Below are positions 465-2,043 of a stretch of 16,723 nucleotides of DNA, piece by piece. Numbering within the stretch: position 1 is the first letter of the stretch; every line of letters begins with the position of its first letter. This DNA is from a virus (Duplodnaviria; Heunggongvirae; Uroviricota; Caudoviricetes), in the IMG/VR virus record IMGVR_UViG_2660238346_000008; one strand, given 5' to 3'. Under the pieces are notes generated by a model, which was not told the DNA's origin, searched no databases, and saw nothing but the letters and a program-made list of their open reading frames with translations. The translations under genes were made by a program, and so were the position numbers.

Positions 465-476
465 ATATCCGCCCAT

Positions 477-500
477 AAAAAAGGGGCGCAGACGCGCCCC
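477..500 (-). terminator. Rho-independent terminator for the porin transcript (GGGGCGC-loop-GCGCCCC followed by T6 on the minus strand)
   Basis: Perfect 7-bp GC stem at 483-500 with a 4-nt loop; plus-strand A-run 477-482 gives a U-tract on the minus strand. Lies downstream of the porin stop and just upstream of the L start. Confidence 0.6.
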
Positions 501-673
501 GAACAATAAAAGTCCAATTTAAAATAAAACCAATAAAGGTAATAACAGAAAGTTAAATCAGCACATGCCAGATGGCAATTGCTGATCGCAGTGACCAATG
601 AAAACTGTGTTTTCATTGATACAGGCCGCCTGTAAGGGCAGACGGCCCGTATTTATTAACTTATCAGCAATAA

Positions 674-1837
674 TCAGAACTGATAAGTCATACCCACAGC
701 AACGATATTATCTGTCGCAACACCGGCTTTCCGGGTAAATTCACTTTCATCAATCAGGTTAATTTTATAATCAACATAGGTGGACATATTCTTGTTAAAG
801 TAATAAGTCGCTCCGACATCAATATATTTAACCAGATCCTGATCGCCATGGTTCACACCACCAACCATAACATCCTGTCCGCGGGACTGAAGGTAGGCCA
901 GGGACGGGCGCAGACCAAAATCAAACTGATACTGCAGTACCGCTTCAAAGTTTTGCGCTTTATCTGCAACTCCTTTATCACCAAAGGTCGTCAGATTCTG
1001 AGTTTCGGAATATGTTGTAGCCAGGTAAAGGTTGTCAGCATCGTATTTTAGTCCGACTCCCCACATCTCAGCGTGTTTACCTTTTGCAACACTACCGGAA
1101 TCAACAACGATCTGCTTTTCAGTCACTTTACCGGTTAAAGGATCAGTTTGTTCAATCGTCAGAGTACCATTCAGACCTTTTTCCTGATTATTGGTTCGGT
1201 CCGCATTAATATATGCGGCAACGATACCAAAACCTTCATATTCATAACTGGCTGAGAAACCGTGACCATCACCATTAGCTTTCCGGAGATCACCCCGATC
1301 ATTTTTACCCTGGTACTGTGCCGCAAAATTCAGGCCATCGACAAGCCCAAAGAAATCTGTATTACGATAGGTTAATACCCCGGAAGTACGGGCTGTCATG
1401 AAGTTATCGGTCTGGGTCCAGCCATCACCGCCAAACTCTGGTAATACGTCAGTATAAGAACCAACATCGTACGCAATACCATAGTTACGACCATAATCAA
1501 TGGTGCCAAACTCACCAAACTTCAGACCTGCAAATGCAAGACGGGTTTTATTACCCGCAGCACCCTCTGATTCAGCTTTATTACCAGAGAACTGATATTC
1601 CCACTGACCAAAACCAGTCAACTGGTCATTAATCTGAGTTTCACCTTTAAAGCCCAGACGTGCGTATGTCTTATCTCCATCATCCCCCTTATCACTGGAG
1701 AAATAATGGAGTGCAGTTGCACGCCCATACACATCAAGTTTATTGCCATCTTTATTGTATACTTCTGCAGCCTGCGCCCCCGCTGCAAAAATTACAGCTG
1801 CTGCCACAGCTGAAAGTGCCACTGTCATTTTTTTCAT
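674..1837 (-). CDS. Outer-membrane general porin, OmpC/OmpF (GBP) family, phage-borne moron
   Basis: 387 aa. Signal peptide [23 protein letters not shown] followed by [15 protein letters not shown]; conserved porin blocks ([97 protein letters not shown]) and a terminal aromatic (...MTYQF). SD AAGGA upstream of the ATG. Coding region is visibly more AT-rich than the flanking phage genes. Confidence 0.9.
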
Positions 1838-2043
1838 GATTTAATCCTTATTTAAACTGAACTATTCATGCATAGAGATGTCATGAACAAAACTCAAAAT
1901 ATTGTAAATTAAATTACGGGTTCAATTTTTATTTTGTTTCAAAATGTAAAAAAACAACTTTGATAGCACTTTATGTCAAGACAAAACAAAAATAACAAGC
2001 AAGCAAATTAATAAACGATGCTTTTAGGTTTTTTCTCAAAAAC
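1838..2043 (-). promoter_or_regulatory. AT-rich promoter/regulatory region of the porin moron, with OmpR-box-like motifs
   Basis: 206-bp AT-rich intergenic gap between the M stop and porin start. Minus-strand TTTACATTTTGAAACAAAAT (plus 1931-1950) resembles the ompC C1 OmpR site as I remember it (TTTACATTTTGAAACATCTA); a TTGACA hexamer lies at about 1974-1979 (minus strand). Confidence 0.4.

Follow-up and report, generated by a model that had tools for sequence, protein, structure and literature searches.

The combination of a phage-borne porin gene with the small RNA (sRNA) IpeX is a known kind of system, represented by phage PA-2, which carries lc, and by the Escherichia coli K-12 prophage DLP12, which carries nmpC. 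Schnaitman and colleagues reportedly found in the 1970s that PA-2 uses OmpC as its receptor and that its lysogens lose OmpC and gain Lc, and Castillo-Keller et al. are said to have located IpeX downstream of the phage porin gene in 2006. IpeX has been described as a 167-nt sRNA of DLP12 and PA-2 that arises by processing of the phage porin transcript and acts as a repressor of ompC and ompF (PMC12197685, PMC5069750, PMC8065619, PMC3333887). Here we describe a porin cassette in a stretch of viral DNA of 16,723 nucleotides (the window), deposited in IMG/VR as IMGVR_UViG_2660238346_000008. The cassette lies between the minor tail genes M and L, and comparison with lc and nmpC identifies it as a diverged relative of the lc/nmpC–IpeX module that has moved to the M/L junction. 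What is new is the M/L site, the regulatory region, the loop architecture of the porin and the breadth of the IpeX-like family. A literature search found no description of a porin between tail genes, and to our knowledge the M/L junction is not a described moron site.

The likeness to lc and nmpC extends along the whole module. The porins belong to the same clade, at 72% identity, with similar signal peptides and a similar GC content of 44%. The promoter-proximal and 5′ untranslated region (UTR) sequences are homologous (GTGACATC...AATAGTTCA), as is the 3′ RNA, in which three stem-loops (SL1, SL2, SL3), a linker containing CUUCUGUUAU...UUACC(C)UUUAUU and a terminator follow each other in the same order, and both RNAs are complementary to the ribosome-binding sites of ompC and ompF. 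The differences concern position, control and detail. Whereas lc and nmpC sit between Q (quuD) and the lysis genes (DLP12, 434B), the cassette sits between M and L, and while nmpC in DLP12 is antisense to the lysis genes, the cassette is co-directional with the late operon. PA-2 lc has annotated CRP sites where the cassette has an ompC-type OmpR box. Finally, the cassette porin carries a 26–30 aa extension of loop L5, and the 3′ element of the cassette, about 30 nt longer than theirs, has a closer match to the MicF seed.

A porin cassette between tail genes M and L

In insert-less relatives, the Stx2 phage LC567834 among them, the stop codon of M and the start codon of L share 1 nt (TGATG), in keeping with the original prediction that the two genes are normally adjacent and are parted here by about 1.6 kb. 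The last three codons of M are rewritten in the window (EQVIR-stop, against EQVVN-stop in insert-less relatives), which marks the left junction. Given the overlap in insert-less relatives and the altered end of M, the extra DNA is therefore exactly positions 465–2043. The layout of the region is as follows.

2044–2385, minus strand: gpM-like minor tail protein gene (Pfam Phage_min_tail, E 7e-33)
465–2043, minus strand: inserted cassette (moron), 1579 bp, with regulatory region, porin gene, structured 3′ RNA and terminator
1838–2043, minus strand: AT-rich 5′ regulatory region, 206 nt, 24.8% GC
674–1837, minus strand: porin gene, 387 aa (Pfam Porin_1, PF00267, E 1e-140, profile positions 1–337 of 337)
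1076–1177, minus strand: extended loop L5 of the porin, residues 221–254, varying in length and sequence among alleles
477–655, minus strand: IpeX-like structured 3′ RNA, about 180 nt, with SL1, SL2, SL3, a single-stranded linker and the terminator
2–464, minus strand: gpL-like minor tail protein gene, 5′ part (Pfam Phage_tail_L, E 5e-55), truncated by the window edge

The insert was expected to be AT-rich, and a comparison of base composition bears this out: its GC content is 41.3%, against 57.0% in the rest of the window, and GC at third codon positions is 36.6% in the porin gene, against 60–72% in the neighbouring phage genes and close to the 40.4% of PA-2 lc. Precise insertion, foreign composition, its own regulatory region and terminator, and an intact gene under purifying selection together support the moron layout that had been proposed, on every sequence-level property of a moron. 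Like the classical lambdoid morons (lambda lom and bor, and those of HK97 and HK022 as defined by Hendrix and colleagues), the cassette is an independent unit with its own promoter region and terminator and a different GC content, and like them it encodes an envelope protein that is likely expressed from the prophage. It differs from them in adding a regulatory RNA to the protein.

The product of the gene is a general bacterial porin of the OmpC/OmpF/PhoE superfamily. Its matches among solved structures include OmpC (PDB, E 2e-128) and also PhoE, OmpK36 and OmpF, and it has a 23-aa signal peptide with a cleavage motif, a predicted 16-strand barrel, the L3 motif PEFGGD (LPEFGGD) and a C-terminal YQF. 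The constriction residues R42, R82, R132, D113 and E117 are kept, and K16 is replaced by R (OmpF numbering). The fold, the L3 motif and the constriction residues are those of E. coli OmpC, and the 16-nt OmpR box C1 is shared upstream. However, the cassette porin is 63% identical to OmpC, no nearer to it than to OmpF, PhoE and OmpN (62–63% to the four K-12 porins), in contrast to 72% identity to Lc of PA-2, and it is without the long L4 of OmpC type. The cassette also differs from the E. coli ompC locus in having no upstream micF and a shorter putative 5′ UTR, and the sequence that aligns with the MicC target region of ompC is not conserved.

Phylogenetic analysis, in which bootstrap support was counted as bipartitions, places the M-L porins in a clade of their own (100%), which groups with Lc, NmpC and OmpD and is split from OmpC, OmpN, PhoE and OmpF at 99.5%. 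By tree and identity, then, the porin is a member of the phage Lc/NmpC/OmpD clade. The designation "OmpC-family" in the original prediction thus holds for the Pfam family and fold and gives way, on phylogeny, to an Lc/NmpC/OmpD type. The same identities (63% against 72% to Lc) and the 99.5% split rule out an OmpC orthologue, which is what the RefSeq label "porin OmpC" implies, and a chromosomal ompC locus with a divergent micF is ruled out by the position of the gene between phage M and L. A scan of one genome per species for a chromosomal donor gave nothing above 69% identity. One E. coli porin of 378 aa (L093/L094, 5001–6137, P0087), 66% identical to the cassette porin, groups with the M-L clade in the tree; its setting is an island rather than a prophage tail, near a sulfatase, a TonB-dependent receptor, an IS element and a helicase-like gene.

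An insertion of about 30 aa in a surface loop, with a conserved barrel core, had also been anticipated. It corresponds to residues 221–254, a 26–30 aa extension of L5 relative to OmpC, OmpF and Lc, and the pore residues are indeed conserved. An AlphaFold2 (AF2) model was used solely for numbering strands and loops from the C-terminus; its mean predicted local distance difference test score (pLDDT) is 63, with the N-terminal 103 residues poor and strands β5–β16 in the expected order. In this model L5 forms a protruding β-hairpin at residues 223–246, with moderate confidence (mean pLDDT per 10-residue block 64–85). Certain alleles are without the L5 extension and have an extra L6 segment instead. 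Across alleles the ratio of nonsynonymous to synonymous divergence (dN/dS) comes to about 0.06, and allele groups are separated by dS values above 1; dN is higher in the loops in most allele pairs, and the open reading frame (ORF) is intact in every allele examined. These substitution patterns indicate that the porin is an old, functional and diversifying gene.

The IpeX-like RNA and its predicted targets

The terminator that had been assigned to the porin gene is present, and its stem is invariant in 11 alleles. It does not follow the gene directly, however: between the porin stop codon and the terminator lies a structured RNA of about 170–190 nt, which the original prediction had not noticed. 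Its elements are these.

652–639 with 632–619, minus strand: SL1
618–609 with 605–596, minus strand: SL2
587–581 with 562–556, minus strand: SL3
542–556, minus strand: linker motif UUAACUUUCUGUUAU, with 15 contiguous predicted pairs to ompC mRNA positions −18 to −4 (Shine-Dalgarno region)
536–545, minus strand: linker motif UUAUUACCUU, invariant in 11 of 11 alleles and complementary to the ompF Shine-Dalgarno region AGGGUAAUAA
500–477, minus strand: intrinsic terminator GGGGCGCgtctGCGCCCC plus T6, with a 7-bp GC stem and a 4-nt loop, ending 12 nt before the L ATG

The RNA folds with a z-score of −9.5 relative to shuffled versions. Over the 11 distinct alleles, 99.3% of cells are paired in the three stem-loops and the terminator, against 36–46% in slid controls; compensatory changes occur at 9 pairs, and none of 500 shuffles did as well. 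A covariance model built from the M-L alleles alone (R1) gives a full-length match downstream of both K-12 DLP12 nmpC and PA-2 lc (37 bits, E 5e-8), beginning some 15 nt past the stop codon of the porin gene (45 nt in P7). It matches 56 of 56 phage-type porin loci, comprising every Lc/NmpC-type viral locus tested, 434B and P7, and gives no credible match beside the chromosomal OmpD- and OmpC-type genes tested or beside K-12 ompC, ompF, phoE and ompN. Folding of the DLP12 region gives the same succession of hairpins, and the linker motif is present there too. The model match and the shared order of elements make the 3′ RNA a homologue of the sequence that follows nmpC and lc, which we take to be where IpeX is encoded. 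A weak R1 match to K-12 micF (L003, 2077–2174; 15 bits, E 0.05) was also seen, and fits the identity to the MicF seed described below.

The RNA is not confined to lambdoid relatives. In P7 an IpeX-like element follows the porin gene (AF503408.1, 25350–25485; L178, 551–686) with a score of 55 bits (E 2e-13); the RNA is therefore common to all three phage-borne porin groups tested, namely Lc/NmpC, P1/P7-type and M-L. The P1/P7-type phage-plasmids (nmpC of P7, 'ompD' of JL22) thus resemble the cassette in a 66% identical porin with an IpeX-like element downstream, and differ from it in that their porins belong to another clade and lie on another replicon, next to ssb.

Whole-length duplex prediction gave unrealistic end-to-end duplexes, and pairing with host mRNAs was instead computed for the linker alone with shuffled controls. 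For ompC, 8 further pairs lie upstream of the 15 contiguous ones, with a dG of −24.7 kcal/mol for a 27-nt segment; the full 56-nt linker has a z-score of −5.6, and 0 of 300 dinucleotide shuffles were as good. The predicted ompF pairing has a dG of −15.4 kcal/mol and a z-score of −3.3 (300 dinucleotide shuffles). No signal was obtained for linker pairing with phoE or ompN. The other allele groups pair via the start codon region with similar energies, and K-12 IpeX itself is predicted to pair at −20.6 and −17.2 kcal/mol. Of 5426 E. coli genomes, 5359 have an ompC 5′ UTR with at least 99% identity. On this computed complementarity, the RNA may lower the synthesis of OmpC and OmpF.

The linker also resembles MicF. 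The stretch 556–532 is identical at 21 of 25 positions to MicF nt 10–34, the ompF-pairing seed, with the core UUAUUACC; 3 of 500 shuffles score equally. The remainder of the RNA is dissimilar to MicF, and whereas MicF is transcribed divergently from the porin gene, the cassette element lies in the porin 3′ UTR.

Regulatory region, distribution and prophage context

The upstream region of 206 nt gives substance to the proposal that the porin gene has regulatory sequences of its own: it is AT-rich and contains a conserved OmpR-box-like site that had escaped the first reading of the sequence. Three elements can be placed within it.

1966–1983, minus strand: conserved motif TGTCTTGACATAAAGTGC (TGTCTT..CA.AAAGTGC), about 15 nt upstream of the OmpR box
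1935–1950, minus strand: OmpR-box-like site TTTACATTTTGAAACA, identical to K-12 ompC box C1 at 16 of 16 nt
1864–1872, minus strand: candidate extended −10 element TGcATGAAT, aligning with the ompC −10 GAGAAT and implying a putative 5′ UTR of about 25 nt

By chance, 0.02 matches to the 16-nt box would be expected in the window. The K-12 ompC promoter carries the identical 16-mer at the expected place, and we take it to be OmpR box C1 of that promoter. Its core is kept in all M-L allele groups despite about 25% divergence around it, and the box also precedes the ompC orthologues of Enterobacter and Serratia; none of the 50 Lc/NmpC-type viral loci has it, nor does PA-2 lc. These observations suggest that the cassette promoter is probably OmpR-dependent. 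The promoter-proximal part of the region resembles that of lc. The −10 element is listed as a candidate because a strict sigma-70 consensus scan was negative; with regard to a lysogen-active promoter of the moron's own, the conserved AT-rich region with its OmpR box would point to one, and that scan does not.

The second motif, TGTCTTGACATAAAGTGC, is likewise shared by all allele groups, although the flanking sequence varies by about 25%. Its reverse complement resembles what we assume to be a MarA/SoxS/Rob box (GCACnnWnnRYYAAR), as found upstream of K-12 micF. A micF remnant upstream of the porin gene was considered and rejected: a local alignment to the ompC–micF intergenic region looks collinear, and blastn (E 1e-3) finds nothing past the OmpR box. 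A search with Rfam gave no match to MicF in positions 300–2400. A second OmpR-box-like site, TTTACCTTTTGCAACA, with 2 mismatches, lies on the plus strand at 1076–1091, opposite the VAKGK codons of L5; this near-match is probably coincidental.

At least 80% of the insert is found in 110 of 5426 complete E. coli genomes (about 2%). The closest of the complete genomes are 96–97% identical to the window over its whole length and have the same M-porin-L order. In them, the region past L continues with K, I, J, lom and tail-fibre genes, and on the far side of the window's terminase end come the Q antiterminator and lysis genes. With K, I, J, lom and fibre genes after L, and terminase, head and lysis genes upstream, the porin therefore lies inside a prophage and not in flanking chromosome. 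Among 30 related loci in IMG/VR, L is downstream in all 30 and M upstream in 29, the remaining locus beginning at the porin. The insert is absent from the 72 deposited phage records that cover at least 80% of the window at 90–97% identity.

The M-L placement spans several allele groups and two tail lineages, and recurs in a contig of Citrobacter farmeri. The cassette is also found in a prophage with a lambda-type tail module and an 853-aa tape measure protein (Logan contig ERR12716494, 4630–5000). In that locus, about 75 nt of the 5′ end of L and about 60 nt of the 3′ end of M from another phage lie between the M stop codon and the cassette, and these scraps suggest scars of an arrival by recombination through the flanking tail genes. 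The window itself is a mosaic between positions 418 and 2414. The NCTC9112 allele is matched at 100% identity from position 2113 to about 914, while M (2414–2114) and the stretch from about 913 to 418 agree at 99–100% with the allele of E. coli 2013C-3033; this stretch covers the final 240 nt of the porin gene, the 3′ RNA and the beginning of L. The window porin is therefore a chimera with a crossover near codon 308.

Overall, the window covers the structural half of a lambdoid prophage, with all genes on the minus strand. Gene order runs from an HNH endonuclease through the small and large terminase subunits, a protease-capsid fusion, the portal and connector proteins to the major tail protein, the G/T chaperones, an HK97-type tape measure protein, M and the start of L. 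The host element is an E. coli prophage with an HK97 head and a lambda tail. The capsid gene encodes a prohead protease fused to the capsid protein (645 aa). The portal ORF (915 aa) is unusually long and is intact in the window (8612–11359 and 11571–13508 for the portal and capsid genes); its counterpart is annotated as frameshifted in several close complete genomes, and one Stx2 phage record has two portal genes.

Possible functions and significance

The best explanation of the cassette, and one that we consider reasonably probable, is a porin swap by lysogenic conversion. The original prediction had named replacement of a host porin among several possible roles, and the IpeX-like RNA, together with its predicted pairing with ompC and ompF, would make that role more specific. 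In the lysogen, the cassette would be transcribed from its own promoter, probably under OmpR, and the phage porin would be exported and form trimers in the outer membrane. The 3′ RNA, whether still within the mRNA or processed from it in the way described for IpeX, would pair with the ribosome-binding sites of ompC and ompF and lower their translation, such that the major host porins would be replaced by the phage allele. Such a swap would alter the receptor surface presented to other phages, colicins and antibodies, and also permeability; on the analogy of PA-2, exclusion of OmpC-using phages could be the benefit. The terminator would keep cassette transcripts out of L in the lysogen, insulating L-K-I-J, and during lytic growth a Q-modified polymerase would read through it. 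Promoter use, OmpR dependence, RNA processing, host-porin repression and the benefit to the lysogen are all steps that we infer.

Several points weigh against this explanation. The strict sigma-70 scan gives no promoter upstream of the porin gene, and the spacing of putative OmpR half-sites downstream of the box differs from the C1-C2-C3 arrangement of ompC. AU-rich sequences yield many spurious duplexes, and a score is likewise obtained for the ribosome-binding region of the cassette itself (z −3.7). The alignment of the covariance model to the Lc/NmpC loci leaves SL3 uncovered. The cassette is found in no deposited phage genome. A review reports that IpeX does not act solely through complementarity with ompC, and the predicted pairing may therefore not be the mechanism. 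Comparison of the C-terminus of J did not point to the receptor of the phage; in the nearest complete prophage it is 100% identical to PhiR5_1, 98.7% identical to Stx2a_1447 and 50% identical to J of 434; the last is said to use OmpC as its receptor. A literature search found no paper on the PhiR phages. The prophage sRNA svsR (PMC12803456) was also considered; it belongs to the maltose/LamB system and is not relevant.

A simpler alternative, to which we give perhaps one part in five of our belief, holds that the porin alone matters, as an extra diffusion channel for nutrients, antibiotics or bile, and that the 3′ UTR does no more than protect the mRNA and end transcription, without acting in trans on host porins. 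The porin is certainly intact and under purifying selection with conserved pore residues, stable 3′ hairpins commonly protect mRNAs, and the mechanism of IpeX is reportedly not purely based on complementarity. Yet the single-stranded linker is the most conserved non-coding stretch, with UUAUUACCUU unchanged in 11 alleles; it is complementary to the ribosome-binding sites of ompC and ompF and not to those of phoE or ompN, it resembles the MicF seed, and repression of OmpC and OmpF is documented for the homologous element of DLP12 and PA-2. The orientation of the cassette raises a different possibility, namely that the cassette acts mainly in lytic growth, with read-through from the late promoter making the porin and the 3′ RNA late in infection, for instance to remodel the envelope or take away receptors and thereby spare progeny from loss on lysed cells and debris. 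The cassette is co-directional with M and L, whereas nmpC of DLP12 is antisense to the late genes, and the terminator stands directly before L, where late transcription must pass it for L-K-I-J to be made. We nevertheless regard a lytic role as improbable: a conserved regulatory region with an OmpR box would be needless if late read-through were the sole source of transcript, and porin assembly late in a short lytic cycle would presumably be of limited use.

That the porin gene is silent or decaying cargo, hitch-hiking unexpressed and without a role, might be suggested by the missing consensus promoter and by the fact that no isolated phage carries the cassette, but it is very hard to reconcile with a dN/dS of about 0.06 maintained over dS above 1, with intact ORFs in all alleles examined, with compensatory changes in the flanking RNA, and with a position kept in two tail lineages and in a Citrobacter genome; we give it little weight. 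Least probable of all, to the point of being negligible, is an origin as chromosomal DNA beside a truncated prophage, a caveat that accompanied the original prediction, or as an assembly artefact. The window by itself, ending within L, gives no view of what comes next, and nothing else speaks for this origin. Complete prophages enclose the porin, with M-porin-L inside them in independent complete genomes as well as in 30 IMG/VR contigs, and both junctions coincide precisely with the M stop and the L start. We regard this reading as refuted by these contexts.

The lysogenic porin swap can be extended into a wider and more tentative proposal, which we hold as possible without preferring it: the cassette could be a mobile porin-exchange device in which a single transcript yields both a replacement porin with hypervariable surface loops and an IpeX/MicF-like RNA acting to silence the two major host porins, under the control of the host's OmpR, with alleles (dS above 1) shuffled between prophages by recombination in the cassette and in the M and L flanks. 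If so, the swap would follow normal porin regulation, and the M/L junction would be a dedicated slot for a surface antigen in an arms race.

For IpeX, which is poorly understood and has no Rfam model, the element described here supplies a family, and its covariation provides a secondary structure and candidate seed sequences for that family. The RefSeq label "porin OmpC" also has a practical consequence, in that genome-based porin typing would miscount the gene as a copy of host ompC. OmpC and OmpF are the main entry route for β-lactams and fluoroquinolones and serve as receptors for many phages, among them T4-like phages, 434 and PA-2, and for colicins. If the lysogenic swap occurs, the cassette would change the phage-therapy host range, antibiotic permeability and surface antigenicity of the strains that carry it, and if the wider proposal also holds, it would decide which OmpC- and OmpF-dependent phages, colicins and antibodies attack about 2% of E. 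coli, many Shiga-toxin producers included.

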